Shown: positions 1,361-60,123, counted from the stretch's first letter. The stretch is DNA of 64,000 nt from Candidatus Shapirobacteria bacterium (GCA_016188545.1 JACPHO010000001.1:270546-334545); one strand, 5' to 3'. The notes: generated from the sequence alone by a model not told the origin. Numbers and translations are program-made.

Positions 1361-1407
1361 TTTTTTTGTTTTTACTTTCTAACTTTTTACTTTATACTGA
1401 TACATAT
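1361..1407 (+). repeat. AT-rich intergenic motif TTTTTACTTTCTAACTTTTTACTTTATACT (member of the ACTTT family)
   Basis: Similar TTTACTTTTAACTTTTT element recurs at 3532-3578 and upstream of r-protein genes. Confidence 0.4.
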
Positions 1408-3531: not shown

Positions 3532-3578
3532 ATATGTTTTTACTTTTAACTTTTTACTTTTAACTTTTTCTCGCTTCC
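3532..3578 (+). repeat. Tandem ACTTTTAACTTTTT intergenic repeats
   Basis: tttttacttttaactttttacttttaactttttc directly upstream of an ATG. Confidence 0.4.
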
Positions 3579-21700: not shown

Positions 21701-22106
21701 TTCTCTCGTTACTCAACAGCCATTGGGTGGAAAAGCCCGTATGGGAGGACAACGACTTGGAGAAATGGAGGTTTGGGCACTAGAAGCACATCGTGCCGCT
21801 CATACACTTCAAGAAATGTTGACTATCAAGTCAGATGATATTGAAGGTCGTACCCACGCTTTCCAATCCATTATTAAGGGACTTCCAATTCCAGAACCTG
21901 CAATTCCTGAGTCATTTAAAGTTTTGACCAAAGAGTTGGCTGGACTTGCTATTGATATTTCTCCAGTTGGTGTTAAAGAGCTCATTGAAGAGCCTACTGA
22001 GAGCTCACCTGATACTCTTCCAGTCGAATCTGATCTGCCAGTTACCAACCAATCGTCAACTCCTACCTCTGACGATGATGATACCCAAAAGGAGGAGGAA
22101 AACTAA
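18765..22106 (+). CDS. rpoB: DNA-directed RNA polymerase subunit beta
   Basis: 1113 aa with conserved beta-subunit regions (…GDKIAGRHGNKGVI…, …PSRMNIGQ-like) and an acidic C-tail. Confidence 0.95.
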   Translation: MPTAKRITWGKKRSNLPKLDLIKIQTQSWQNFLNNELSDTIQTISPISDYTGNNWQLELGQMTVDPTPVSPDIAKKKGLNYVVPIHINAKLTNKRTGDIREENVFFLNLPTMTTEGTFIVNGIERGVINQLVRSPGVYFTGETDPGTGKTLYNAEIRPVRGSWLEFFIGKKDVVFARIDRKKKFPATIMLRAACQMGDKQLTVEFSDFINGTISADPTKTTEEAILEFYRKLRPGEPVVLENAQKFFNERFFDLRTYEIGNVGRYKINKKFGFKFDDEKKENWVLRKEDLVATIKYLIQLQKGEVSRLDDIDSLANRRLRRAGEIVSQIAIRPALARFERMVKERMSLISTKEKPLPSQMINPQPLISSLNTFFRSNQLSAILDQTNPLSEIDLLRRVTVVGIGGLTRERAAFSIRDVHSSQYGRICTVRSPEGPNIGLVTYLALYAQVNKYGFIEAPFRKVIKSGKKFNVSQDIVFLDADDEYGAHITHLGVQIDDNDNITQEWLPIRYQGEFIEGPLELIDYIDLVPNVIVGTSASLIPFVDHDDATRALMGSHMQTQAVPLVSPQSPIIGTGMEGAIATAMNRTILANNPGKVTYVDGEKIIVTLDDKLPKGTEGNHSQISADGKTETYFPVKFTRTSPYGTCYNQKVVANVGDKIKKGDLLIDGPSTDDGELSIGRNILVAYASIDGLSYEDSFLISDRLVKQDILTNIQIYENVAQVVETKLGSEELTKDIPNVSDAELAKLTEDGIVMIGATVGPNDILVGKVEPRGEKELSAEERLLRAIFGEKAREVKDTSLRVANGEGGVVIKVEVLDKDGGDELDPGVNKVVKVYVAQIRRIQEGDKIAGRHGNKGVICRIMPEYDMPHLADGTPVDLVMSPLSVIARMNLGQILEVTLGYAGFKLDKKFAVPVFEKYTEEQIAQELKTACLSVNGKTQLFDGRTGEAYDQTSVVGVGYIVKLVHMVDDKVHARSTGPYSLVTQQPLGGKARMGGQRLGEMEVWALEAHRAAHTLQEMLTIKSDDIEGRTHAFQSIIKGLPIPEPAIPESFKVLTKELAGLAIDISPVGVKELIEEPTESSPDTLPVESDLPVTNQSSTPTSDDDDTQKEEEN

Positions 22107-26273: not shown

Positions 26274-26314
26274 TCTTTAAAACTTTATAACTTTCAACTT
26301 TATAAACTCATCAT
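26274..26314 (+). repeat. Intergenic ACTTTATAAC/ACTTTATAAACT motif upstream of rpsG
   Basis: ctttaaaactttataactttcaactttataaactcatcatATG. Confidence 0.45.
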
Positions 26315-32004: not shown

Positions 32005-32027
32005 ACGGGTTTCGACCCGTTTTTTAA
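32005..32027 (+). terminator. Rho-independent terminator
   Basis: ACGGGT-TTCG-ACCCGT followed by TTTTTT. Confidence 0.55.
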
Positions 32028-32044
32028 TGTTATTATTTACTAAT

Positions 32045-32079
32045 TAATTCTTAATTCCTAATTCTTAATTCCTAATTTC
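32045..32079 (+). repeat. Tandem heptamer tract (AATTCYT)n immediately upstream of fusA
   Basis: aattcttaattcctaattcttaattcctaatttct. Same element family at 42884-42921, 43587-43624 and 58250-58275. Confidence 0.55.
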
Positions 32080-32083
32080 TACT

Positions 32084-36013: not shown

Positions 36014-36130
36014 GGTAAAAATAAATGTCATTTCCGCAATTCTTTTTGTCATTCCCATGAAGGCGGGAATCCAGATCTAAATCATCATCATTTTCCCCAG
36101 TTTTGAGCCTGTCGAAGTGGCGATAGTGTC

Positions 36131-36158
36131 TTGACAAATAATATCAAAATAGTATAAT
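36131..36158 (+). promoter_or_regulatory. Consensus sigma70 promoter TTGACA-16 bp-TATAAT. The antitoxin ATG lies 6 nt downstream, so the transcript is probably leaderless.
   Basis: -35 at 36131-36136, -10 at 36153-36158, ATG at 36165. Confidence 0.5.
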
Positions 36159-36164
36159 CATATT

Positions 36165-36434
36165 ATGAAAACGACTATCCAAGTCCCCGTCGACAAAAAT
36201 TTAAAAACAATTTACGAAAATAACGCTGATAAGTTAGGCTATTCTTCACTGCAAGAATATATTCGTGTGTTTCTGAAACAAAACTTAGGCCAGGACAATG
36301 TTGAATACTTAACTCCACAAGAAGAAAAAAAGCTTCTTCAAATGTCTCGCGCCTCCGATCGGGAAATTAAAAAAGGTAATTTCATCAAAAGTAGTAATAT
36401 TGACGAATTAATGGCATACTTAAACAGTGCCTGA
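36165..36434 (+). CDS. RelB/DinJ-family (ribbon-helix-helix) antitoxin
   Basis: N-terminal beta strand TIQVPVD followed by helices. 89 aa. 8-nt overlap with the downstream toxin. Confidence 0.55.
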   Translation: MKTTIQVPVDKNLKTIYENNADKLGYSSLQEYIRVFLKQNLGQDNVEYLTPQEEKKLLQMSRASDREIKKGNFIKSSNIDELMAYLNSA

Positions 36435-39249: not shown

Positions 39250-39280
39250 CCCCTCCCGTAGATTTCGGAGGGGTTTATAA
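39250..39280 (+). terminator. Terminator-like hairpin after tuf
   Basis: CCCCTCC-loop-GGAGGGG followed by a TTTAT weak U-tract. Confidence 0.45.
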
Positions 39281-39418
39281 AACAATTTATTTAAAGAGAT
39301 CGTTCTTTAAAAATATAGATTCTATATTTTATAAGTTGTTTTACAAAATTAAATTAAAAATTAAATAAATTACAAAATTCATTTTAAATTGAAAATTGTA
39401 AATTGAAAATTAAACTGT

Positions 39419-42043: not shown

Positions 42044-42089
42044 TATAACTTTTCAAACTTTTAACTTTATAAACTTTACAAACTAACAT
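42044..42089 (+). repeat. Intergenic motif AACTTTTAACTTTATAAACTTTACAAACTAACAT upstream of rpsS
   Basis: Consensus AACTTTAYAAACTTTACAAACTAACNTATG shared with 47272, 47774, 51345, 52947 and 46872. Confidence 0.5.
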
Positions 42090-42365
42090 ATGTCAAGAAG
42101 CTCTAAAAAAGGACCATATATCGACGCCAAGCTGCTTGTAAAAGCTGCCAAAATTCCCGCGTCCGAGGCTATCAAAACTTGGGCCCGCAAAAGCCAAATT
42201 GCTCCAGAATTTGTGGGACACAATTTTGCAGTCCACAACGGTAAAAAATTCATCAATGTTTTTGTCACTGAAGACATGGTCGGACACTATTTTGGTGAAT
42301 TCGCCGCCACTCGAACCTTCAAAGGTCATGGTCGTATTGTTAAGAGAGTTATTGAAAAAACCTAA
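42090..42365 (+). CDS. rpsS: 30S ribosomal protein S19
   Basis: …[14 protein letters not shown]… S19 signature. Confidence 0.92.
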
Positions 42366-42368
42366 TCT

Positions 42369-42860
42369 ATGGCTACAACTACCCAAAAAACTACTACTGT
42401 TAAGAAAACAACTGCTGTCAAAAAGACTGTAGCAAAAGTCGCTAAAGCCTCAACTTCCAAATTATCTACACCTAAAGTCGTTGAAGCGACAAGTGTCGCG
42501 CAAACCAGGCTCGGCCTGGCTAAGTATCTCAACAAGAACCTCAAAGTATCACCACGAAAACTTCGTTTGGTAGTTACCGCCGTCAAGGCACTTAACCCCC
42601 AAGATGCTCAGACTCGACTCAAGTTCACCAACACTAACGCTGCTCGTCTTCTCCACAAAACTATCCAAGATGCTATTGCTTCCGCTAAGAACAATCACCA
42701 CCTTGACTCTTCTACTCTTAAATTCACCGAAATGCGTGTTGATGAGGGTATGAAGATCAAGCGAATGGACAAATCTCATGGTTCCCGTTTTGCCAGAGGA
42801 ATCATTCAGAAACGACATAGTCGATTAGTTATCGTTTTATCTGGTACAATACAAAGCTAA
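42369..42860 (+). CDS. rplV: 50S ribosomal protein L22 (with K/T-rich N-terminal extension)
   Basis: L22 core after an approximately 45-aa low-complexity extension. Confidence 0.88.
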   Translation: MATTTQKTTTVKKTTAVKKTVAKVAKASTSKLSTPKVVEATSVAQTRLGLAKYLNKNLKVSPRKLRLVVTAVKALNPQDAQTRLKFTNTNAARLLHKTIQDAIASAKNNHHLDSSTLKFTEMRVDEGMKIKRMDKSHGSRFARGIIQKRHSRLVIVLSGTIQS

Positions 42861-42883
42861 CTTTGCAAATTATTTTATTAAAA

Positions 42884-42921
42884 ATTCCTAATTCCTAATT
42901 CCTAATTCTTAATTCCTAATT
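42884..42921 (+). repeat. Tandem heptamer tract (AATTCCT)n upstream of rpsC
   Basis: attcctaattcctaattcctaattcttaattcctaatt. The whole 42867-42929 element is about 90% identical to 43578-43628. Confidence 0.6.
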
Positions 42922-42929
42922 AATTAAAT

Positions 42930-43571
42930 ATGGGTAACAAAATCAATCCTATCGGTTTTAGACTAGAAACTGTCAAAAACAGTCCGCAGTGGCAGTCCTC
43001 TTGGTACGCAGACAAAAAGAAATATCCAATTCTTTTGCTTGAGGACAAGAAAATCCGTGATTTCATTCAGAAGAAACTAGGTTCAGCCGGTATTGTCACA
43101 ATCAGAATCGAACGTTCCGTTAAAAAACTCAAATTAATTTTGGTTGTTTCCCGCCCAGGTCTCGTTATCGGTCGTGGTGGTAAAGAGCTCGAAGCCCTTA
43201 AAAAAGATATCATTAAGATTATTCCCAAGACTCCAGGCAAACAAAACATCGACATTCAAGTCGAAGAGTTCAAATACGTCGATCTTTCTGCCAAGCTAAT
43301 TGCCGAGAAAATCGCTTTCCAACTCACCAAGAGAATGCCTTATCGCCGAGTCGTCCTTTCATCTATTGAAAAGACAATGGCTGCCGGAGCCAAAGGAATT
43401 AAAATCATTCTTGGTGGACGTATCAATGGAGCCGAGATTAGCCGAAGAGAAAAATTCTCACAAGGTAAAGTTCCCCTCTCTACCATCAGATCAAAAATTG
43501 ATTATGCCGAGTGTCCATCTTTGACTAGGTCGGGTTATATCGGTGTTAAAGTTTATCTCTGTCTAAGTTAG
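42930..43571 (+). CDS. rpsC: 30S ribosomal protein S3
   Basis: MGNKINPIGFRL… KH and S3-C domains. Confidence 0.92.
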   Translation: MGNKINPIGFRLETVKNSPQWQSSWYADKKKYPILLLEDKKIRDFIQKKLGSAGIVTIRIERSVKKLKLILVVSRPGLVIGRGGKELEALKKDIIKIIPKTPGKQNIDIQVEEFKYVDLSAKLIAEKIAFQLTKRMPYRRVVLSSIEKTMAAGAKGIKIILGGRINGAEISRREKFSQGKVPLSTIRSKIDYAECPSLTRSGYIGVKVYLCLS

Positions 43572-43586
43572 TTCTTTAAATTATTT

Positions 43587-43624
43587 TATTAAAAATTCCT
43601 AATTCCTAATTCTTAATTCCTAAT
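43587..43624 (+). repeat. Tandem heptamer tract (AATTCCT)n upstream of rplP
   Basis: aaattattttattaaaaattcctaattcctaattcttaattcctaattaat. Confidence 0.6.
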
Positions 43625-43628
43625 TAAT

Positions 43629-44033
43629 ATGTTACAGCCATCACGAACCAAATATCGCAAACAATTCCGCGGTCGTATGCGCGGTCTCTCCCAAGGTCAC
43701 CTCGTCGAATTTGGTGATTATGGCCTCAAGGCCACGGAGTGTGGTTGGCTTACCGCCAATCAAATTGAAGCAGCTCGTAAAGCTATCTCTCATTCAACCA
43801 AAAGAAACGGTCGCATGTGGCTTCGTGTTTTCCCCGACAAGCCTTTCACCGAAAAAGGTGCTGGCGCCCCCTTGGGTGCTGGTAAAGGAGATGTCAAAGG
43901 TTATGTCTGTGTAGTTCGTCCCGGTAGAATTATGTTTGAAGTTGCCGGTATCCCCGAAGCTGAAGCCAAAAAAGCCCTTGCTCTTGCTTCCGCCAAGTTA
44001 CCTGTAGTTACTAAAGTTGTCAAAAGAATCTAA
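43629..44033 (+). CDS. rplP: 50S ribosomal protein L16
   Basis: MLQPSRTKYRKQFRGRMRG… L16 signature. Confidence 0.92.
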   Translation: MLQPSRTKYRKQFRGRMRGLSQGHLVEFGDYGLKATECGWLTANQIEAARKAISHSTKRNGRMWLRVFPDKPFTEKGAGAPLGAGKGDVKGYVCVVRPGRIMFEVAGIPEAEAKKALALASAKLPVVTKVVKRI

Positions 44034-44051
44034 AAATAAACAATCGCTATT

Positions 44052-44249
44052 ATGAAAAAAACTGATAAAATGTCCTACCGGCAAAAATCATCCCAAGAGC
44101 TCTCTGTGGCTCTGGCTGATCTTCAAAAGAAACTAGTAGAAACTCGTCTTAAGCATCTTACTGGTAACCAAAAAGATACCTCGGTGATTCGCAAAATTAA
44201 ATACGAGATAGCTTATGTCTCAACATTAATTACTGAAAATGGAAAATAA
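44052..44249 (+). CDS. rpmC: 50S ribosomal protein L29
   Basis: 65 aa, position and helical L29 pattern. Confidence 0.85.
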   Translation: MKKTDKMSYRQKSSQELSVALADLQKKLVETRLKHLTGNQKDTSVIRKIKYEIAYVSTLITENGK

Positions 44250-44493
44250 AAAAGGTAAAACATTTACTGGCATCGTAGTTTCCGACAAGATGACCAATAC
44301 CATCGTCGTCGAACTAAGCTACACATTCCGCCACCCAATGTACAAAAAAATTGTCAAAAAGAGTAAAAAAATCTATTCTGAAAACAATCTTACCGCCAAG
44401 AGTGGTGACACTGTTCTCGTCAAAGAAACTCGACCGCTAAGTAAACTCAAGAGGTTTACCACTGTCGAAATATTAAAAGTCAGTAAACAATAA
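44239..44493 (+). CDS. rpsQ: 30S ribosomal protein S17
   Basis: …KTFTGIVVSDKMTNTIVV… S17 signature. Confidence 0.9.
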   Translation: MENKKGKTFTGIVVSDKMTNTIVVELSYTFRHPMYKKIVKKSKKIYSENNLTAKSGDTVLVKETRPLSKLKRFTTVEILKVSKQ

Positions 44494-44508
44494 ACTTTAA
44501 ATCTTATT

Positions 44509-44877
44509 ATGGTCCAACTTAGAAGCATTCTCCGTCCGGCCGACAACTGTGGCGCTCGCCGAGTTATGGTAATGCACATATATAAAGGAAGTGTTCACAA
44601 AAGTGCTGGAATTGGTGATATTGTCCTAGCTGTCGTCAAAGATGCCATCCCCAATGGCATGGTCAAGAAAAAAGAAAAGGTCAAAATGGTCATCGTCCGG
44701 ACTCGAAAAGAAATTGGACGCAAGGATGGTTCTTATATTCGCTTTTCCGACAATGCCGCTGTTATCATTGATGCCCAGAAGAACCCTCGAGGTACTCGTA
44801 TTTTTGGGCCGATTGCTCGTGAGATCAAAGATCTCGGGTTTAATAAAATTGCTTCCATGGCCAAGGAGGTCTACTAA
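44509..44877 (+). CDS. rplN: 50S ribosomal protein L14
   Basis: [19 protein letters not shown]… matches MIQ..T.L.VADNSGAR. Confidence 0.92.
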
Positions 44878-44878
44878 T

Positions 44879-45202
44879 ATGAAAATTCAAAAAGGCGATA
44901 ACGTCAAAGTATTAATTGGTAAGGACAAGGGTCGTGAAGGTGAAGTCTTAGCTGTCTTTCCAAAGAAAGAGAGAATGGTCGTCAAGGGACTAAATCTTTT
45001 CAAAAAGCACGTCAAACCATCACAAAATTCCAAAGGTGGAATTATCGAAAAGGAAAGACCTCTTCACTCTTCAAAACTCATGTTAATTTGTCCTTCCTGC
45101 AAAAAAGCAGCTCGTGTTAGCTATCAACTAGACAAAACTGGTACTAAATACCGCATCTGCCAAAAGTGTAAAGCCATCCTTACTAACAAATTAACCAAAT
45201 AA
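44879..45202 (+). CDS. rplX: 50S ribosomal protein L24 carrying a C-terminal CxxC…CxxC zinc-ribbon-like insertion
   Basis: MKIQKGDNVKVLIGKDKGREGEVL KOW motif. GGAGG SD upstream. Cys motifs CPSCKK and CQKCKA. The ORF-track start at 44642 (other frame) is rejected. Confidence 0.85.
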   Translation: MKIQKGDNVKVLIGKDKGREGEVLAVFPKKERMVVKGLNLFKKHVKPSQNSKGGIIEKERPLHSSKLMLICPSCKKAARVSYQLDKTGTKYRICQKCKAILTNKLTK

Positions 45203-45203
45203 A

Positions 45204-45746
45204 ATGACCACCTCAACCTCTTCACTAACTTCTACTCTTCTTGACTCCCTACATGAGCAGTTTCCCAAAAGAAATCTTCACTCTTTTCCGTCATTGAAGA
45301 AAGTTGTCCTAAACTACCGTGTTTCTGAAGGTCGAGATAGTCAAGAGACCTTGGCTGTTGCCGAGTCTGAGTTAGTCTCTATTGCCGGCCAAAAGCCACG
45401 TCTTTGCAAATCAAAAAAATCAATTTCTACATTTAAACTGCGTGAAGGTGAACCTCTTGCTTACAAAGTCACTCTCCGTGGACTTCGAATGCATCAATTT
45501 ATTGAAAAATTATTCAACATCGTTTTACCACGTTTGCGCGACTTCAAAGGCATGCCTCTCAAAGCTTTTGATGAATCAGGAAACTACAACCTAACTATCA
45601 AAGATCAAACATACTTTCCCGAGATAAACCTCGACAAAGTCAACAAGATCCGACCCATCCAGATAACTCTCTGCATATCTTCCTCTTCAAAAGAAGACTC
45701 AAAAATGTTATTATCCGCCCTAGGCTTTCCATTCGAAAAGCAATAA
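45204..45746 (+). CDS. rplE: 50S ribosomal protein L5
   Basis: Position and L5 core (…FPEINLDKVNKIRPIQITL…). Confidence 0.9.
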   Translation: MTTSTSSLTSTLLDSLHEQFPKRNLHSFPSLKKVVLNYRVSEGRDSQETLAVAESELVSIAGQKPRLCKSKKSISTFKLREGEPLAYKVTLRGLRMHQFIEKLFNIVLPRLRDFKGMPLKAFDESGNYNLTIKDQTYFPEINLDKVNKIRPIQITLCISSSSKEDSKMLLSALGFPFEKQ

Positions 45747-45749
45747 TAT

Positions 45750-45935
45750 ATGGCCACCACTGCAAAAATAGTTCGTGAAACTAAAAAACTAAAATATTCT
45801 GTCCGACATCACAATCGTTGCCACCTTTGTGGTCGTCCACATGCCTTTATTCGTTTGTTCGGTATTTGCCGACTCTGTTTCCGCAAACTGGCTAACGCTG
45901 GTATGCTTCCCGGAGTTAAAAAAGCCAGTTGGTAA
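45750..45935 (+). CDS. rpsZ: 30S ribosomal protein S14 type Z (zinc-binding, 61 aa)
   Basis: [10 protein letters not shown]…CRLCFR four-Cys motif. Confidence 0.92.
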
Positions 45936-45941
45936 ACTAAT

Positions 45942-46328
45942 ATGATCACATCTCTTTCCACCGACTTTCTTATCCGTCTCAAAAACGGTTCAAGAGCCGA
46001 GCGTAAAACCATTACTGCCCCACTTTCAAAATTCAGCCTCTCAATGACTGCTCTTATCAAAAAGTACGGCTATATCGAAGACTTCTCAGTTTCCGAAGCA
46101 GACCGCCTTATTACTATCAAGCTGATTAACAACAGCGGTTCTCCTGCTATTTCCGACGTCAAATTATTCAGCCGTCCCGGTCGACGTGTTTACGAGAAAT
46201 CGTTTTCTCTTCCCTGGGGTCAATCAAAACAATCATTAATTATTATTTCAACTTCATCCGGCGTTATGTCTCAAAAAGAGGCCAAGAAAAAAGGCGTCGG
46301 TGGAGAAGTTATTGCCGAAATCTACTAA
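45942..46328 (+). CDS. rpsH: 30S ribosomal protein S8
   Basis: Position and S8 pattern. Confidence 0.9.
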   Translation: MITSLSTDFLIRLKNGSRAERKTITAPLSKFSLSMTALIKKYGYIEDFSVSEADRLITIKLINNSGSPAISDVKLFSRPGRRVYEKSFSLPWGQSKQSLIIISTSSGVMSQKEAKKKGVGGEVIAEIY

Positions 46329-46331
46329 CCC

Positions 46332-46871
46332 ATGTCACGCATTGGTAACCTGCCTATCACTATTCCCTCCTTAGTCACCCTCGTCCAAGATGGACAAGTA
46401 GTTACTGTCACTGGACCTAAGGGATCCTTAGTTTTAAATGTTGCTCACAAAATCAAAGTTGATGTTGCTGACAGTCAAGTAGTCGTCAGTCGTCTCTCTG
46501 AAGATAAGAAAACCAAAGCTAACCATGGTACCACTCGTGCTCACTTAGCCAACATGATTTCCGGAGTCGTTACACCTTGGACTAAAGACATGGAAATTAG
46601 AGGAACTGGTTACAAGTTCCAAGTCGCCGGCAACAAACTTACAGTTCATGCTGGTTACATTAAACCTGTCATTATTACTGCTCTTGAAGGAATCACTTTT
46701 GTTTCCACAGACGAATCAAAACTAACTATTTCCGGAATCGACAAAGTAATAGTCGGTCAGACTGCTTCAAATATTCGCAAAATTAGAAAACCAGAACCAT
46801 ACAAAGGTAAAGGTATCCGTTATCTTAATGAATTTATCAAGCTCAAAGCCGGCAAGACGGCCAAAGCATAA
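46332..46871 (+). CDS. rplF: 50S ribosomal protein L6
   Basis: MSRIGNLPITIPSLV… L6 N-terminus. Confidence 0.9.
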   Translation: MSRIGNLPITIPSLVTLVQDGQVVTVTGPKGSLVLNVAHKIKVDVADSQVVVSRLSEDKKTKANHGTTRAHLANMISGVVTPWTKDMEIRGTGYKFQVAGNKLTVHAGYIKPVIITALEGITFVSTDESKLTISGIDKVIVGQTASNIRKIRKPEPYKGKGIRYLNEFIKLKAGKTAKA

Positions 46872-46929
46872 CGTTAAAATATTCCAACTTTTTAACTTTA
46901 AAAACTTTATAAACTTTACGAACTGACCT
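46872..46929 (+). repeat. Intergenic ACTTT-family motif upstream of rplR
   Basis: ccaactttttaactttaaaaactttataaactttacgaactgacctATG. Confidence 0.5.
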
Positions 46930-47271
46930 ATGATTACCAAAAATAGAACCCAAAGAAGACAAAATAGAGTCCGTGCCAAAATCGCCAAAAATATTGGTAT
47001 TCCTCGTCTTTCAATTTTTCGTACCAATGCTCATATTTGGGCTCAAATAATTGACGACAAGCACGGTAAAACTTTGGTTAGCAGCTCTAGTAAAGTACTG
47101 AAGACTAAGGGTACCAAGACCGAAGCCGCCATCAAAGTGGGTGAAGATATTGCCCTCAAAGCTTTAGACAAAAAAGTCCTCAATATCCGTTTTGATCGTG
47201 GTGCTTACAAATACCACGGTCGTGTTAAGGCACTTGCCGATGCCGCCAGGGACGGAGGTTTAAAATTCTAA
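46930..47271 (+). CDS. rplR: 50S ribosomal protein L18
   Basis: …RLSIFRTNAHIWAQIIDD… L18 signature. Confidence 0.9.
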   Translation: MITKNRTQRRQNRVRAKIAKNIGIPRLSIFRTNAHIWAQIIDDKHGKTLVSSSSKVLKTKGTKTEAAIKVGEDIALKALDKKVLNIRFDRGAYKYHGRVKALADAARDGGLKF

Positions 47272-47296
47272 CTTTATGAACTTTACAAACTAACCT
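47272..47296 (+). repeat. Intergenic motif CTTTATGAACTTTACAAACTAACCT upstream of rpsE
   Basis: Matches the consensus directly abutting the ATG. Confidence 0.5.
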
Positions 47297-47773
47297 ATGA
47301 CCAATACATTTGAAAACCAACAATTCAGAAAAATGGATCGACCTGAGTCAGAGTTTACTGACAAGGTAGTCGAAATCAAAAGAGTCAGTAAAAAAACTAA
47401 GGGTGGTAACCAGATCTCATTCACAGCCTTAGTTGTAAGTGGAGACAAAAAAGCCCGTGTGGGGGTAGGTCATTCACGTGCCAAGAGTGTTGCTGATGCT
47501 ATTCAAAAAGCAATTCAGAAAGCTCGCAAATCCATGATCAGTATCAACATCATCGACGGTACTATTGCTAAAACAATCAAATTAAAATTCAAAGGCGCCA
47601 TTATCCTCATGCGTCCCGGTAAACAGGGTAGTGGTCTTATCGCTGGAGGGCCAGTTCGATCAGTTGTCGAGCTAGCTGGTATCAAAGATATTGCCTCAAA
47701 AGTTATCGGCTCCAAGACCAAATCAGTCAATGTTTGGACTACCTTTAAAGCTCTAGAAATGTTAAAAAAATAA
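47297..47773 (+). CDS. rpsE: 30S ribosomal protein S5
   Basis: …VVEIKRVSKKTKGGNQISFTALVV… S5 dsRBD. Confidence 0.92.
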   Translation: MTNTFENQQFRKMDRPESEFTDKVVEIKRVSKKTKGGNQISFTALVVSGDKKARVGVGHSRAKSVADAIQKAIQKARKSMISINIIDGTIAKTIKLKFKGAIILMRPGKQGSGLIAGGPVRSVVELAGIKDIASKVIGSKTKSVNVWTTFKALEMLKK

Positions 47774-47808
47774 TTATTCCACCAACTTTTAACTTTACAA
47801 ACTAACTT
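47774..47808 (+). repeat. Intergenic motif CCAACTTTTAACTTTACAAACTAACTT upstream of rplO. No rpmD (L30) gene is present here.
   Basis: Only 35 nt separate rpsE from rplO. This is too short for rpmD. Confidence 0.5.
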
Positions 47809-48228
47809 ATGAATATTCAATCAAATCTACCTAAAACAACCGCCAAGTCTCAAAAAAGAGTCGGTCGTGGCTATGGTTCCGGTGTCGGCGGGCATACTAC
47901 CGGTCGAGGTTCCAAAGGGGACAAAGTCCGTGGCACCACCAAAATTACTTTTGATGGTACCAAAATCAAAAAAGGTTGGATTAAGAGAACTCCATTTCTT
48001 CGGGGAAAACACCGCACTCTAAAACTTAGCACTATTCCGGTATTCAATCTAACTCGTATTGATGCCATGTTTAAAGTCGGTGCTACTGTAGATCCTAAAG
48101 CATTAAATTGCCAATACGCCAAAATATTATCCGGAGGTTCCCTCACCAAAGCCCTTAACTTCAAAGGTTTGCTATATTCAGAATCTGCCAAGAAAGCAAT
48201 ATTAGCTGCGGGTGGTAAGATAGATTAA
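47809..48228 (+). CDS. rplO: 50S ribosomal protein L15
   Basis: …KRVGRGYGSGVGGHTTGRGSKG… L15 signature. Confidence 0.92.
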   Translation: MNIQSNLPKTTAKSQKRVGRGYGSGVGGHTTGRGSKGDKVRGTTKITFDGTKIKKGWIKRTPFLRGKHRTLKLSTIPVFNLTRIDAMFKVGATVDPKALNCQYAKILSGGSLTKALNFKGLLYSESAKKAILAAGGKID

Positions 48229-49508
48229 TGAACCAAATTCTACACTCTCTTTCCTTATACATAGAAGGGTTAAAAACACCTCTACTTCGTAAAAAAATCG
48301 GCTTTACTATTGGAATTCTCATTCTTTTTCGGCTCATTGCCCACATTCCGGTTCCTGGTGTCGATCTAGCTCTTCTTCGTCAATTCTTTGCCCAAAACCA
48401 AGTCTTATCACTTCTAAATATTTTTTCAGGAGGTACCTTAGCCAACTTTTCCATTGCCGCTTTAGGTCTAAATCCTTACATTAATGCTTCTGTCATGATG
48501 CAGTTATTGGCTATTGTCGTCCCTCAGCTAGATGAGCTCAGTAAAGAAGGGGAGTATGGCCGAGCCAAAATCAACCAATATACCCGCATTATTACCATCC
48601 CCTTAGCTATTTTCCTGGCACTAGGAATGTATGGTATTCTCCGCTCCCAAAACATTATTGGTACTCTTAGTCCTCTGACTTTAGTGGCTTTAGTTGCTAG
48701 CATGTTGGCTGGTACCATGATCATGATTTTCTTGGGGCAACTCATCAATCAGTTTGGGGTTGGCAATGGTATCTCTATGATAATCTTTGCTGGAATTATC
48801 GCCCAGCTCCCGGTTACCGCTCTTCAGACTTTATCTGTCAGTGATTTTAGCAATCCTCAAACCATGATCAATCTTCTCGTCTTTGCCGCCATGGCTATTG
48901 GTCTAATTTTGGCCATCGTCTTTGTCGAAGAAGCTGTGCTTCGGATTCCCATTCACTATGCCAAACGTGCCCAAGTCACTTATCTACCCATCAAAGTTGA
49001 TACTGCCGGAGTTATGCCTATCATCTTCGCCGTCTCCTTGGCGACGATACCCTCACTGATTGGCCAATCCTTAGGCAAGCTAAGCAATCCGGCAATAGCT
49101 GATCCTGCCTTAGCCCTCGCCCGTCTTTTTAGAACAGATGGTTATCTTTACATCCTCTTTTACTTTATCTTAGTTATCGGATTCACTTTTTTCTACACCA
49201 GTGTCGTCTTCAAACCTAAGGACATCGCCGAAGAACTTCGTAAATCAGGTGGCTTTATCCCCGGAATCCGACCAGGACAATCAACTGAGAAGCGTCTTCA
49301 GTACTTAATTAATCGGGTGATCGCCATTGGTGCTGTGTTCTTAGGTTTCATCGCCGTTTCCCCCTCAATAGTTCAAAATCTAACCGGAATCACTACCCTT
49401 ACAATCGGTGGTACTTCTATACTTATCGTTGTTTCTGTTGTTATAGAGTTGACCCGTAAAATCGAAAACGTAGTTCAAACCTACAATTACGATAAATTAA
49501 CCTATTGA
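48228..49508 (+). CDS. secY: Preprotein translocase subunit SecY
   Basis: 10-TM profile, GGTLANFSIAALGLNPYINASVMMQLL motif. Confidence 0.95.
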   Translation: MNQILHSLSLYIEGLKTPLLRKKIGFTIGILILFRLIAHIPVPGVDLALLRQFFAQNQVLSLLNIFSGGTLANFSIAALGLNPYINASVMMQLLAIVVPQLDELSKEGEYGRAKINQYTRIITIPLAIFLALGMYGILRSQNIIGTLSPLTLVALVASMLAGTMIMIFLGQLINQFGVGNGISMIIFAGIIAQLPVTALQTLSVSDFSNPQTMINLLVFAAMAIGLILAIVFVEEAVLRIPIHYAKRAQVTYLPIKVDTAGVMPIIFAVSLATIPSLIGQSLGKLSNPAIADPALALARLFRTDGYLYILFYFILVIGFTFFYTSVVFKPKDIAEELRKSGGFIPGIRPGQSTEKRLQYLINRVIAIGAVFLGFIAVSPSIVQNLTGITTLTIGGTSILIVVSVVIELTRKIENVVQTYNYDKLTY

Positions 49509-50104
49509 TGTCACTAAATATTTTTATAATTGGTCCGTCAGGTTGTGGTAAAACCACCCAAGCCGAGCTAGTAGCAAAAAAGTATAATCTAGTCCATCTG
49601 TCTATGGGTCAGCTTCTTCGAGACGAGATTAGCAATGGTACCAATTTTGGTCTCGAAGCCAAACCATACATCGACCAAGGAATTTGGGTTCCCGACGATC
49701 TTGTCTTCGATGTTCTCATTATTAAGCTCAAAGCTTTAAATTATCAGAATTTTATTATCGACGGCTTTCCCCGGGTCCTAAATCAAGGCAGGATAATTGA
49801 ATATTATCTTCGAAAACAATCCCAGCCTGTTTCTATGCTCATCCACCTCGACGTAACCTTCCAAGAAATTATGGACCGTCGTGCCAAAATGGGTGCTGAA
49901 TTCCAAGACAAATCTCGTACTGACAACACCCCCGAAGATGTCGCTCGACGCCAAAAGTCCTATGAAGAGACGATCGATCCCATCAAAAACTACTTTAGTT
50001 CCAAGAAAATCCTTATTGAAATCGATGGTAATCGACCAGTTGATCCAATTTTTAATGATATAGTTAGTGCCATCGACAAAGTTAACCATCAAATTATCAA
50101 TTAA
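49505..50104 (+). CDS. adk: Adenylate kinase
   Basis: IIGPSGCGKTTQ P-loop, LSMGQLLRDE. No Zn-lid cysteines. Confidence 0.9.
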   Translation: MMSLNIFIIGPSGCGKTTQAELVAKKYNLVHLSMGQLLRDEISNGTNFGLEAKPYIDQGIWVPDDLVFDVLIIKLKALNYQNFIIDGFPRVLNQGRIIEYYLRKQSQPVSMLIHLDVTFQEIMDRRAKMGAEFQDKSRTDNTPEDVARRQKSYEETIDPIKNYFSSKKILIEIDGNRPVDPIFNDIVSAIDKVNHQIIN

Positions 50105-50110
50105 ACATAA

Positions 50111-50314
50111 ATGAAAGAACCAACTGTCCGGGCAATTGTTACTGAGGTCTTGCCAAACCAGCTGTTTCGAGCTAAACTCGAAAACGGTAAAGAAATAATT
50201 TGCCATTTAGCCGGTAAATTAAGAATGAACCACATCCGGTGTTTAGCTGGTGACAATGTTTCACTTGTCCTTTCACCCGAGGGAGAGAAGGGGAGAATCG
50301 TTTACCGTGGTTAA
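50111..50314 (+). CDS. infA: Translation initiation factor IF-1
   Basis: S1-like OB fold, 67 aa, …GKLRMNHIRCLAGDNV…. Confidence 0.9.
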   Translation: MKEPTVRAIVTEVLPNQLFRAKLENGKEIICHLAGKLRMNHIRCLAGDNVSLVLSPEGEKGRIVYRG

Positions 50315-50380
50315 CAAATTTACTCTTTGATATTAGAAGCTAATTAGGTTACAATATCCAAGTCTTAAATACCAAACAAT

Positions 50381-50494
50381 ATGAAAGTTCAGTCAAGTAT
50401 TCGCCGTCGCTGTAAAAATTGCAAGGTGGTCATCAGGTCTGGTGTCAGACGGATTATTTGTTCTACCAAGAAACACACCCAAAAACAGGGATAA
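50381..50494 (+). CDS. rpmJ: 50S ribosomal protein L36 (not in ORF track)
   Basis: Manual translation MKVQSSIRRRCKNCKVVIRSGVRRIICSTKKHTQKQG. C…C…C…H zinc-ribbon pattern. Confidence 0.88.
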   Translation: MKVQSSIRRRCKNCKVVIRSGVRRIICSTKKHTQKQG

Positions 50495-50502
50495 ACTAAA
50501 CT

Positions 50503-50922
50503 ATGAGAATATCAGGTATTGAAATCCCCGATCACGAGAGAGCCCAAGTCGGTCTTACTCGTTTTTACGGTATCGGTCCGGTAAATGTCATTCAATTAGC
50601 CAAAAAAGCTAAAATTGATCTCAATACCAGAATCAAGGACTTGTCCCGTGACGATGTCGGTAACCTTATGAAAGCCCTGGAAAGTTTTACAGTTGAGGGA
50701 GATCTTAAGAAAGAAGTTCGTGAAAGCATCGATCGACTTAGTGCTATCAAATGCTACCGAGGTATCCGACACATTGTTTCACTTCCTGCTCGAGGTCAAA
50801 GAACAAAATCTAATGCTCGCACTCGTAAGGGTAAGAAGAAGACAGTCGGTTCACTTACTAAAGAAGCCTGGGCAAAAATCGAGACCCAGCAAAAAGCAGC
50901 TACTGTTGGTAGTAACAAATAA
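50503..50922 (+). CDS. rpsM: 30S ribosomal protein S13
   Basis: MRISGIEIPDHERAQVGLTRFYGIG…. Confidence 0.92.
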   Translation: MRISGIEIPDHERAQVGLTRFYGIGPVNVIQLAKKAKIDLNTRIKDLSRDDVGNLMKALESFTVEGDLKKEVRESIDRLSAIKCYRGIRHIVSLPARGQRTKSNARTRKGKKKTVGSLTKEAWAKIETQQKAATVGSNK

Positions 50923-50927
50923 TCACT

Positions 50928-51344
50928 ATGGCAGAAACAATTCAAAAGACCAGCGCGTCTCCAGCTACTCCCAGCAAAAAGAAAACCTATCGTAATATTG
51001 CCAATGGACGACTAAATATCAAATCTTCTTTTAATAATACTATTGTTACAGTATCCGACTCCAAAGGTAACACTTTAGCCTGGTCCTCCGCCGGACATTG
51101 TGGTTTCAAAGGTGCCCGTAAATCTACTCCTTATGCAGCTACCACTGCCATCGAGCGTACTCTCGAAGAGGCCAAAAAGTATGGTATCAAAAAGTTAGAA
51201 GTTTACCTCAATGGACCAGGAGTCGGCCGCGATGCCGCACTTCGTTTCCTTAGAAGCAAACGTGATTTTGATATCGATCTTATTTCCGATGTTACTCCAA
51301 TCGCCCACAATGGACCACGTCCACCCAAGGCACGTCGCGCTTAA
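50928..51344 (+). CDS. rpsK: 30S ribosomal protein S11
   Basis: …NTIVTVSDSKGNTLAWSSAG…. Confidence 0.92.
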   Translation: MAETIQKTSASPATPSKKKTYRNIANGRLNIKSSFNNTIVTVSDSKGNTLAWSSAGHCGFKGARKSTPYAATTAIERTLEEAKKYGIKKLEVYLNGPGVGRDAALRFLRSKRDFDIDLISDVTPIAHNGPRPPKARRA

Positions 51345-51384
51345 TCAATAACTTTACAAACTTTTTAACTTTATAAACTAATCT
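51345..51384 (+). repeat. Intergenic motif AACTTTACAAACTTTTTAACTTTATAAACTAATCT upstream of rpsD
   Basis: Matches the consensus. Confidence 0.5.
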
Positions 51385-52014
51385 ATGTCACGAATCACAT
51401 TAGACACAAAATGCCGTCTCTGTAGAGCAGCTGGTACCAAACTTTATCTTAAAGGTAGTCGTTGTTTATCAGCTAAATGTCCTATTGAAAAAGGTGCCAC
51501 TCCTCCAGGTATGCATGGAGCCAAAAGAGCTAAAAAACCAACAGATTACGGAATTCAGCTTCGTGCTAAGCAAAAAGCCAAGAGAATATTCGGTGTCCAA
51601 GAAGCTCAATTCAAAAACTATTTCCTTACTGCCAAGACCAAAAAAGGTTTGGTTGGAGATGTCTTTCTTGATATGTTAGCTCGTCGTCTTGACAATGTCG
51701 TCTACGAAGCTGGACTTTCACTTTCACGTTCCCATGCCAAACAATTGATTTCTCATGGTCATGTTTTTGTTAATGATAAACCTCTAAATATTCCTTCATA
51801 TCCGGTCAAGAGAACTGACACTGTCTCCCTTGATACTAAGGCAGCCGCCAAAACAATTGAAACCATCCGTCTTGCTGACAAGGACTTCAAAGCCCCGTCA
51901 TGGCTTGACCTAAATAAATCAAAATATGCAGTCACCTTGTCATCAGGAACTCCTGAATACGGTTATCCAAAGGAGATTGACCTAAATTTAATAATTGAAT
52001 ATTATTCTAGATAA
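51385..52014 (+). CDS. rpsD: 30S ribosomal protein S4 (zinc-finger form)
   Basis: CRLCRAAG…CLSAKC and S4 domain. Confidence 0.92.
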   Translation: MSRITLDTKCRLCRAAGTKLYLKGSRCLSAKCPIEKGATPPGMHGAKRAKKPTDYGIQLRAKQKAKRIFGVQEAQFKNYFLTAKTKKGLVGDVFLDMLARRLDNVVYEAGLSLSRSHAKQLISHGHVFVNDKPLNIPSYPVKRTDTVSLDTKAAAKTIETIRLADKDFKAPSWLDLNKSKYAVTLSSGTPEYGYPKEIDLNLIIEYYSR

Positions 52015-52028
52015 AAAGGAGAAACATT

Positions 52029-52946
52029 ATGGTAGATACCAGCAAATTTCATATTAAAACCCTCAAAGCCAACGAAACTTATGGTAAGTTCGAGATGGCA
52101 CCCTTAATTGGTGGATTCGGACACACCATTGGTAACTGTCTTCGTCGCATTCTCCTGATTACTATCCCAGGTGCTGCTATTACCAAGATTAAAATCGATG
52201 GTGCCAATCACTTGTTCACCACACTTCCCGGAGTAAAAGAAGACTTGGTCGATGTTTCCCTGAATCTTAAAAAAGTAAAATTTGCTTATCACCAAGATGA
52301 GCCGATTACTATTGAGATCAACAAAAAAGGCGTCGGACCTGTTACTGCCGGTGATATTATCGGTAACGATCTGATTTCCGTTTCCAACCCTGACCAGCAT
52401 ATCTGTACAATTACTGACAGCAAAACTACATTCAAGGTCGAAATCATTGTCGAAAGGGGAGTTGGTTATACCTTAGCTAAAGAGCAAAAGACCGACATTA
52501 TCGGTCAAATCATTCTTGATGCTACTTTTACTCCTGTTCTTCGTGCCAACTATCAAGTTGAGCCTACTCGTCTTGGTAAAAAATCCAACTATGACATGTT
52601 GACTCTCGAAGTTTGGACCGATGGTTCTATTGAACCGCTTACTGCTATTAAAATGGCAGCCAAGGACATGATCAAAACCCTTTCTCAAATTGTCGATCCC
52701 AAGGAGTTTGATGATGAAGTTGTTACCTTAGCTAGTAATCCTTCAATTTCCGGTCTTGATATTTCTATTGAAGAAATTGAGCTACCACTCCGGGTTACCA
52801 ATGCTCTCAAGAAATCCGGCTATTCTACAATTGATCACCTAATTAAAGCTGGTCGCGCTGATGTCAGCAAAGCCAAAAACGTTGGTGAAAAGTCTTTAAA
52901 AATTATTGATGCCTGGCTCAAAGAGAAAAACTTCTCCTGGAAATAA
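52029..52946 (+). CDS. rpoA: DNA-directed RNA polymerase subunit alpha
   Basis: NTD (…GHTIGNCLRRILL…) and CTD (…LPLRVTNALKKSGYSTI…). SD AAAGGAG upstream. Confidence 0.92.
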   Translation: MVDTSKFHIKTLKANETYGKFEMAPLIGGFGHTIGNCLRRILLITIPGAAITKIKIDGANHLFTTLPGVKEDLVDVSLNLKKVKFAYHQDEPITIEINKKGVGPVTAGDIIGNDLISVSNPDQHICTITDSKTTFKVEIIVERGVGYTLAKEQKTDIIGQIILDATFTPVLRANYQVEPTRLGKKSNYDMLTLEVWTDGSIEPLTAIKMAAKDMIKTLSQIVDPKEFDDEVVTLASNPSISGLDISIEEIELPLRVTNALKKSGYSTIDHLIKAGRADVSKAKNVGEKSLKIIDAWLKEKNFSWK

Positions 52947-53000
52947 TTACATCCAACTTTATAAACCTTACAAACTTTCAAACTTCATAAACTATTTCTC
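52947..53000 (+). repeat. Intergenic ACTTT-family motif upstream of rplQ
   Basis: atccaactttataaaccttacaaactttcaaacttcataaactatttctcATG. Confidence 0.5.
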
Positions 53001-55284: not shown

Positions 55285-55311
55285 TATAACAAATAGATCG
55301 TTTGTTATAAT
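55285..55311 (+). promoter_or_regulatory. Inverted repeat TATAACAAA-7 nt-TTTGTTATA overlapping extended -10 TGTTATAAT, 10 nt upstream of ppa ATG
   Basis: Read directly. The -10 lies at 55303-55311. Confidence 0.4.
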
Positions 55312-55320
55312 ATTTAACTT

Positions 55321-59971: not shown

Positions 59972-60123
59972 GTCAGGTAGAATAGGTAGCTTACGAGCAT
60001 TTTTATTTATATATTTTTACTTTTATTAAATTGATCACTATTTCTCTAGATTATTCCCGCCGCACGCTCTTTGTACCGCAAGGATAGGATTCATTGATCA
60101 AATAAAAGTAACTGGAGGATTTC

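Follow-up and report, generated by a model that had tools for sequence, protein, structure and literature searches.

The stretch of DNA analysed here, a window of 64,000 nucleotides (nt) from Candidatus Shapirobacteria bacterium (GCA_016188545.1 JACPHO010000001.1:270546-334545), carries on its + strand the genes rpoB-rpoC-rpsL-rpsG, fusA and tuf, followed by the S10-spc-alpha ribosomal-protein (r-protein) cluster. Seven of the spacers between a stop codon and the next ATG are 25-58 nt long and consist of (A)ACTTTAYA(A) direct repeats, and at their 3' end AACTAAC/T-N-T abuts the ATG of rpsG, rpsS, rplR, rpsE, rplO, rpsD and rplQ. By Pfam, these genes encode S7, S19, L18, S5, L15, S4 and L17, respectively; FtsK and an HTH_25 (RodZ-like) protein are encoded behind two related elements described further below. 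All seven arrays lie where the original prediction, made from the window alone, had placed them, with its coordinates marking the first base past the upstream stop codon. Its remark that GGAGG is lacking was borne out for all leaders, five of the seven being wholly without G.

All leaders are on the + strand. The rpsL-rpsG leader (26274..26314; 41 nt, 0 G) comprises three ACTTT units followed by AACTCATCAT and the ATG, and its predicted minimum free energy (MFE) is -0.5 kcal/mol. Four such units are present both in the rplB-rpsS leader (42044..42089; 46 nt, 0 G), where they precede AACTAACAT and the ATG, and in the rplF-rplR leader (46872..46929; 58 nt, 3 G), which ends in AACTGACCT with TGA in place of TAA. 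Both include the element TTAACTTTA, as do the rpsE-rplO leader (47774..47808; 35 nt, 0 G; two units, then AACTAACTT and ATG; MFE 0) and the rpsK-rpsD leader (51345..51384; 40 nt, 0 G; three units, then AACTAATCT and ATG; MFE 0). The leader between rplR and rpsE (47272..47296; 25 nt; MFE 0) has two units before AACTAACCT and the ATG, and the AA of its first unit is shared with the rplR stop codon. Units are degenerate in the rpoA-rplQ leader (52947..53000; 54 nt, 0 G), which reads AACTTTATA, AACCTTACA, AACTTTCA and AACTTCATA, then AACTATTTCTC.

Matches to AACTTTAYAAAC with at most one mismatch number 15 in the window, where 1.74 are expected; they occur on the + strand only and are confined to these seven spacers, and at least 15 matches were reached in none of 100 shuffles. 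The signal resides in the clustering, because the bare hexamer AACTTT is not enriched in the window (103 versus 89.8 expected). TTAACTTTA is found seven times (1.37 expected) and exactly in four window leaders, and ACTAAY lies no more than 15 nt 5' of the start of nine of the 76 window genes (0.39 expected). A recurrence of ACTAAC before four further starts, also claimed originally, is exact at rpoC and rplF, where its TAA terminates the upstream gene, but not at rpsH and rplD, which have ACTAAT and ATAACT, respectively. Window arrays precede seven of 31 translation-apparatus genes and none of the 45 others (Fisher p = 0.0012). Generic AT-rich intergenic composition does not account for elements that are strand-specific, G-free and located at translation genes only.

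For the comparison within the clade, 29 operon genes were located in 69 related Shapirobacteria loci and the window, and every stop-to-start spacer was measured. The window SecY has 65-95% identical counterparts in metagenome-assembled genomes of Candidatus Shapirobacteria (Microgenomates; Patescibacteria or candidate phyla radiation, CPR), the closest being that of L004 (95%). The usual spacer in this clade is 1-11 nt. Spacers of 24-115 nt are sporadic and always found at rpsS, rpsC, rplP, rplN, rpsN, rplF, rplR, rpsE, rplO, adk, infA, rpsD and rplQ; at rplC, rplD, rplW, rplB, secY, rpsK and rplM, none is expanded in the 69 clade loci or the window. Arrays of the ACTTT type number 43 in 19 genomes and have two to five units each, spaced by 7 nt in 49 cases, by 8 nt in 20 and by 9 nt in 22. 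Unit variants in different genomes are ACUUUAUA, ACUUUUA and ACUUUAA. TTAACTTTA, which is the core of the T7 gene 10 epsilon element, is present in 23 of the 43 arrays, and in 38 of them the ATG lies 10-14 nt past the array end. A blind search of the clade for clusters of at least three ACTTT returned 45, of which 43 are on the sense strand with the ATG of an open reading frame (ORF) 2-14 nt after the last unit; the distance is 10-14 nt in 40 clusters. With a slightly different criterion, 44 of 44 arrays precede r-protein genes, of which there are 11 different ones.

Presence and absence of arrays can be compared between sister species. Across the operon, L004 and the window share 86% nucleotide identity, and BLAST alignments are interrupted exactly at the arrays. 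All eight window arrays are absent from L004: its rpsS junction reads ...AAATAA-T-ATG with flanks identical to those of the 46-nt leader in the window, and its rplF-rplR junction is 6 nt long. ACTTT arrays are present at rpsS, rplP, rplN, rpsE and rplO of L001, whose SecY is 88% identical. The rplN junction exists in one-unit, two-unit and longer forms in different genomes; that of the window, between rpsQ and rplN (44494..44508, +), has the minimal one-unit form ACTTTAAATCTTATT, where L004 has ACTTTATAACTAAATT and L001 two units. In the alignments, the arrays are clean insertions between stop and start codons that are kept 1-11 nt apart in relatives.

A second repeat family, overlooked in the original prediction, consists of four to five G-free tandem TTCYTAA units before fusA, rpsC and rplP (11 matches versus 0.26 expected). 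The rplV-rpsC leader (42861..42929, +; 69 nt, 1 G) is made of AAATTATTTTATTAAAAA and five of these units, and both L004 and L001 have 3 nt at this junction. In the rpsC-rplP leader (43572..43628, +; 57 nt, 0 G), AAATTATTTTATTAAAAA is followed by four units; the corresponding L001 spacer is an ACTTT-type array. Since the rpsC and rplP copies share the non-repeat 5' part AAATTATTTTATTAAAAA, the whole cassette appears to have been copied between junctions rather than generated by local slippage. At the same junctions, other genomes have the low-complexity repeats ACTAWT, GCTAA, TTAGA and AAATTAAA. Judged from these comparisons, arrays are gained and lost through unit slippage and cassette copying over the time of species divergence.

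Such turnover raises the question of whether the arrays have a function at all. In a neutral scenario, TAA-ACTTTATAACTAAATT-ATG would expand by slippage in the manner of a microsatellite, and the resulting spacers would be tolerated, without any added function, provided that they remained free of G and of structure and preserved the start context. Presence or absence of arrays between species with 86% nucleotide identity and nothing else changed is compatible with this idea, and so are the one-, two- and multi-unit forms at rplN, the many unrelated unit families at the same junctions, and the small gain in start-codon accessibility reported below. Slippage on its own does not readily explain why the ACTTT family persists in 19 genomes over a range of 65-95% SecY identity at the same 11 junctions, only before r-protein genes and never at rplC, rplD, rplW, rplB, secY, rpsK or rplM. 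Neither does it account for the copying of the rpsC/rplP cassette with its non-repeat part, or for the 12-fold preference for the sense orientation among the unrelated metagenome matches listed. Neutral expansion thus appears unlikely to us.

The composition of the arrays points to the RNA level. Their G content is 1.5%, compared with 18.4% in the window, and 33 of the 43 are without G. No more than one G is present in 73 of the 118 expanded spacers of the clade, whereas only three are C-poor instead; G-poor yet C-retaining spacers indicate strand-specific selection acting on the RNA. Predicted MFEs of the window leaders range from 0 to -3.2 kcal/mol, with a fully unpaired centroid in eight of ten folded leaders. 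In the clade, initiation regions with an array have a mean MFE of -6.0 kcal/mol versus -10.8 kcal/mol at tight junctions (p = 2e-11). According to the predicted folds, the initiation site is thus immediately preceded by single-stranded RNA of low complexity, as expected for a standby-type site.

Several other roles were rejected. Periods of 7, 8 and 9 are neither multiples of 3 nor the helical repeat, which excludes coding and DNA curvature. A small upstream ORF ending at an in-frame TAA at positions -6 to -4 is incompatible with only 11 start codons in 1,920 nt of arrays and with a stop at these positions in just 21 of 43 arrays. A mobile repeat of the miniature inverted-repeat transposable element (MITE) or repetitive extragenic palindromic (REP) type was discarded given that 43 of 45 clade arrays have one orientation relative to the gene and that the window shows no inverted partner; inverted-pair forms do occur in L003 and in other metagenome contigs. 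The proposal that the motifs are autoregulatory r-protein binding sites did not hold either, as the same sequence stands before 11 different genes and is absent at the same junctions in close relatives. Moreover, Rfam at gathering thresholds finds one tRNA only in the 64 kb, and the leaders are without predicted structure.

Internal promoters were another option considered from the start. The AT-rich arrays, which contain TTTACA, TATAAA, TAAACT or TATACT, would in that case recruit RNA polymerase and add transcription starts within the operon, possibly yielding very short or leaderless mRNAs. Short-leader or leaderless starts do exist, as exemplified by a canonical TTGACA-N17-TATAAT-N6-ATG at 36129-36167 of the window, and in the clade the distribution of -10 boxes before operon-first genes has its maximum between -15 and -11 relative to the ATG, positions which suggest that many mRNAs have no leader or a very short one. 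Recognizable promoters of the clade have canonical TATAAT or TGnTATAAT, and at 55290-55320 of the window starts follow 9 nt after extended -10 boxes (TGTTATAAT). Within arrays, TATACT is found 18-26 nt before the ATG in L018, L020, L031, L035, L046 and L060; L018 moreover has TTGACT-16-TATACT in its rpsS array and TATAAT at -12 of rplR. In L084, the spacer separating two tRNA genes is occupied by an inverted array pair.

The features of most arrays are nevertheless poorly compatible with promoter function. Window arrays contain no -10 hexamer at a 5/6 match with A2 and T6. A σ70 scan for -35 and -10 elements 16-18 nt apart gave 32 matches where 31.8 are expected, none wholly within an array, and in the two matches located in arrays, the hexamers overlap with the ATG. 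What is invariant is the C and T-run of ACTTT as well as CTAA, with no TAnnnT pattern, and unit lengths varying from 7 to 9 nt rule out a fixed -35/-10 geometry. A leaderless -10 (TAnnnT about 6-7 nt before the ATG) is not formed by the arrays, which have TATAAC, ACAAAC or TTAAAC at -12 to -7 and lack the final T; only rplR of L018 has TATAAT at this position. Strand-specific absence of G with retention of C is unexpected for a DNA-level signal. At fusA, the TTCYTAA array (32043..32083, +) is located 3' of a terminator (32005-32026) and of a separate extended -10, TGtTATTAT (32028-32036; read directly from the sequence), so that it would be part of the predicted 5' untranslated region. Finally, the three consecutive genes rplR, rpsE and rplO carry one array each within about 900 nt, and such repetition from one cistron to the next would be superfluous if the arrays were promoters, whereas it is expected of translation signals. 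With TATACT confined to one sub-lineage, no -10 in the window arrays and no enrichment in the scan, we regard internal promoters as rather unlikely.

Translation signals of the classical type are rare in this lineage. In the window, five of 76 genes have a Shine-Dalgarno (SD)-like tetramer at -20 to -4; the figure for operon-first genes of the clade is 7%, and none of 46 array-bearing starts has such a tetramer. Every class of starts shows T at -1 (56-85%), an A-rich stretch from -3 to -8 and strong depletion of G; T at -2 is common in arrays. With U at -1 or -2, pairing with the initiator tRNA could be extended to its A37/A38. By contrast, the rpsD-rpoA spacer (52015..52028, +) harbors the canonical SD AAAAAGGAGAAACATT. 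Intergenic AAGGAG at SD distance before rpoA is conserved in 46 of 56 clade loci (82%), and strong GGAGG elements precede rpoC (22086-22100), rplX (about 44862) and one other gene (60110-60123; gene 60124). Because of these conserved and strong sites, the anti-SD of the clade is probably canonical. This survey covers r-protein loci, and the anti-SD is deduced from such sites rather than read from 16S rRNA, whose conserved motifs were found neither in the window nor in 319 fetched loci. In a survey of CPR, reduced detection of the anti-SD motif was reported for one Parcubacteria subgroup only (PMC9297842). The presence of an SD before rpoA in an otherwise SD-poor lineage hints at a special, SD-based regulation of the RNA polymerase alpha subunit.

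The fixed distance between array and ATG recalls SD geometry, and one might think of the arrays as a replacement SD that pairs with an altered 3' tail of 16S rRNA. The units vary in sequence and length, however, and unrelated families occupy the same junctions. An altered anti-SD is rejected on account of the conserved canonical AAGGAG of rpoA and the GGAGG sites at rpoC, rplX and gene 60124, and is also at odds with the restriction of anti-SD loss to a single CPR subgroup. We consider a replacement SD extremely improbable.

Related arrays exist beyond the clade. When metagenome and viral contigs were scanned with the loose pattern AACTTT-N1-4-AACTTT-N1-4-AACTAA, the matches listed (243) were mostly unrelated and AT-rich. 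Among them, the motif in sense orientation has an ORF ATG no more than 12 nt behind it in 38 of 233 usable cases, as compared with three of 227 for the reverse orientation. Downstream genes of the matches listed, as read from N-terminal sequences, include those for L11, L27, L33, S13, S4, SecY, ClpP and RpoC. Two contigs with AACTTT arrays before an ATG bear hallmarks of Bacteroidota, likewise an SD-blind lineage (PMC6847099), i.e., a type IX secretion system (T9SS) sorting domain and a PorE-like/CHU_0125-family (OmpA-like) protein. An exact window-type 24-mer had no match in viral contigs. Of 148 arrays with at least three units over all loci, 134 are intergenic. Arranged as (AAAGTT)n-loop-(AACTTT)n, inverted pairs are present on the unrelated contigs L084 (74-154), L126 (3160-3285), L170 (1330-1425) and L135 (2100-2215). 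Their settings are a tRNA-Phe/tRNA-Pro spacer, junctions of co-directional genes (stop-hairpin-ATG) and a back-to-back position between divergent genes. A hairpin between stop and ATG could be melted by the terminating ribosome.

Long hairpins of the kind that inverted-pair versions in L003 and on other contigs would form are typical of processing sites. The arrays could accordingly be viewed as signals for RNA processing, stability or termination which segment or polarize the polycistronic mRNA. They are unstructured, G-poor and C-containing, and repeat every 7-9 nt; ACUUU fits the RN|WUU cleavage preference of RNase E, and G-free, C-containing unstructured RNA resembles a Rho loading site. 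The dinucleotide of the arrays is AC, however, and not the YC preferred by Rho, and premature termination within an r-protein operon would be costly. Given that neither processing nor termination explains the fixed ATG distance and the start-proximal CTAAnnT module, such a role is very unlikely.

We propose that the arrays are transcribed intercistronic leaders within a polycistronic r-protein mRNA which act as SD-independent translation initiation regions of the standby or enhancer type, and assign a probability of about 0.55 to this interpretation. Among the options of the original prediction, an SD-independent enhancer agrees best with the sense-strand orientation, lack of G, predicted unstructuredness, fixed ATG distance and per-cistron copies of the arrays in an SD-poor lineage. 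It is further favored by the sense-strand bias before ORF ATGs among the metagenome matches listed, by the fusA array lying 3' of a terminator and an extended -10, and by the epsilon core in 23 of 43 arrays. Each leader would present 25-58 nt of A, U and C in the form of 7-9-nt direct repeats, ACUUUWY(A)(A). Being without G, it would be devoid of stable structure, of pairing with the anti-SD and of AUG, GUG and UUG, and it may serve as a permanently single-stranded standby pad for the 30S subunit, probably via protein bS1. Most CPR encode a bS1 with three to four domains (PMC9297842), and in E. coli, unstructured tails of CA or AU repeats have been proven to act as standby enhancers (PMC5934652). 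The conserved 3' module CUAAnnU would set the AUG in the preferred context, i.e., A-rich from -3 to -8, without G, and with U at -1/-2. In most relatives, where cistrons start 1-11 nt past the upstream stop, translation is presumably coupled by termination-reinitiation. The array would replace this coupling by de novo initiation, independent and presumably strong, at certain r-protein cistrons.

A number of observations weigh against this proposal. Since the same junctions are array-free in close relatives, the arrays are dispensable, and the variety of unit sequences found at these junctions is more in line with a generic effect of an unstructured spacer than with recognition of a specific motif. 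According to predictions, the start region (-15 to +13) is barely more accessible with arrays than at tight junctions (0.613 versus 0.587; p = 0.08). In addition, the -10-like TATACT in the arrays of one sub-lineage makes promoter activity possible in some copies, and inverted pairs occur, among other places, between two tRNA genes where translation is irrelevant.

It is tempting to go one step further and to speculate that AACUUU-type repeats represent a sequence-specific, portable ribosome-recruitment module, a natural multimer of T7 epsilon read by bS1 or by pairing with 16S rRNA. Such a module would have been adopted independently by CPR Microgenomates, Bacteroidota and some of their phages, and would constitute a second general mRNA-ribosome code beside the SD. 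This extended version seems doubtful to us.

Additional elements in the window and the clade are related to the arrays to varying degrees. T-rich variants stand before ftsK (1361..1407, +; TTTTTACTTTCTAACTTTTTACTTTATAC..., with one G close to the ATG) and before the HTH_25/RodZ-like gene (3532..3578, +; TTTTTACTTTTAACTTTTTACTTTTAACTTTTT). The related units originally noted at these two places are indeed present but represent a T-richer variant without the terminal ACTAA. A third low-complexity type, which contains G, is seen in the rpsJ leader (39340-39418), located 3' of the tuf terminator (39251-39276) and ending in AAATTGAAAATTGTAAATTGAAAATT repeats. L003 has near-identical cassettes of 61-115 nt before rpsS, rpsC, rplP, rplN, rplF, rplR, rpsE, rplO and rpsD, measuring 96-115 nt at seven of these nine junctions. 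Their AATGGTT/AATGATA units lie 3' of their own inverted copy, resulting in a long hairpin, and several ATGs are present in them, which sets them apart from the G-free arrays. Repeats forming GC-rich hairpins (CCCTGCCCTGTCAAGGGAAGGG...GGGTTTT, or CTCCCTTTTTTAAGGGGAG...) abut the ATG of rpsN in L006, of rpsE, rplO and rplQ in L013, and of infA and adk in L025, L032 and L046. They are a structured junction element distinct from the arrays.

How starts without an SD are found by the ribosome is an open question that has been addressed experimentally mainly in Bacteroidia, and the answer obtained there so far is a diffuse one, in which low structure is combined with a few adenines 5' of the start. 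The arrays are a discrete, recognizable and transplantable sequence placed where an SD would be, in an uncultured CPR lineage which ignores the SD, and their presence or absence in sister species (the window versus L004) provides natural controls. If they enhance initiation, they could be used in SD-blind bacteria as a compact expression signal that needs no SD and by CPR gene finders as a marker for start-codon calling, and they would place the T7 epsilon enhancer, long a puzzle, in a natural context. If they are mere tolerated spacers, they delineate the sequence space that an SD-less ribosome accepts before essential genes, i.e., no G, no structure, and U at -1.

We found no description of these leaders in the literature on SD usage in CPR or on the motif, of which our coverage is incomplete. 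Comparison with known systems suggests that they are a variant of SD-independent translational leaders for which we are not aware of an earlier account. In Bacteroidia, the anti-SD is kept but sequestered, SDs are ignored, and initiation is tuned by structure and Kozak-like upstream adenines (PMC6847099). The Shapirobacteria studied here are similar in that SDs are scarce (5/76 window genes; 7% of operon-first genes), the anti-SD is apparently retained (AAGGAG before rpoA in 82% of loci), and the start context is A-rich and G-poor. According to the same source, a lone conserved SD belongs to rpsU in Flavobacteria; here it belongs to rpoA. The two groups differ in the preferred base at -1, which is T in our clade, and tandem-repeat leaders go unmentioned in the parts of the literature that were searched.

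In E. coli, unstructured standby tails (CA or AU repeats) and A/U-rich enhancers that depend on bS1 resemble the arrays in being single-stranded low-complexity repeats immediately 5' of the initiation site. Their effect is reported to saturate at 16-18 nt (Sterk et al. 2018, PMC5934652; Vimberg et al. 2007, PMC2176067), and the arrays measure 25-58 nt. Whereas the E. coli elements are engineered or SD-assisted, the arrays are natural, SD-less, intercistronic and lineage-specific, and possess a conserved 3' module.

A match in sequence exists to the epsilon element of T7 gene 10 (UUAACUUUA[A]), whose nine-base core is literally contained in four arrays of the window and, over the clade, in 23 of 43. 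Like the arrays, epsilon is situated in the untranslated leader of highly expressed genes, just 5' of their initiation region (PMC9590205). The likeness, UUAACUUUA in a putative 5' leader, is one of sequence. Epsilon is a single copy accompanied by a strong SD, in contrast to the two to five tandem units which abut the start codon without an SD. For epsilon, pairing with helix 17 of E. coli 16S rRNA has been proposed. A further parallel may be the omega leader of tobacco mosaic virus, which is nearly G-free, contains short direct repeats (ACAAUUAC) and CAA runs, and is reported to replace an SD in E. coli. Omega, however, is the viral 5' leader of a capped eukaryotic mRNA, and the sequence of its units differs from that of the arrays.

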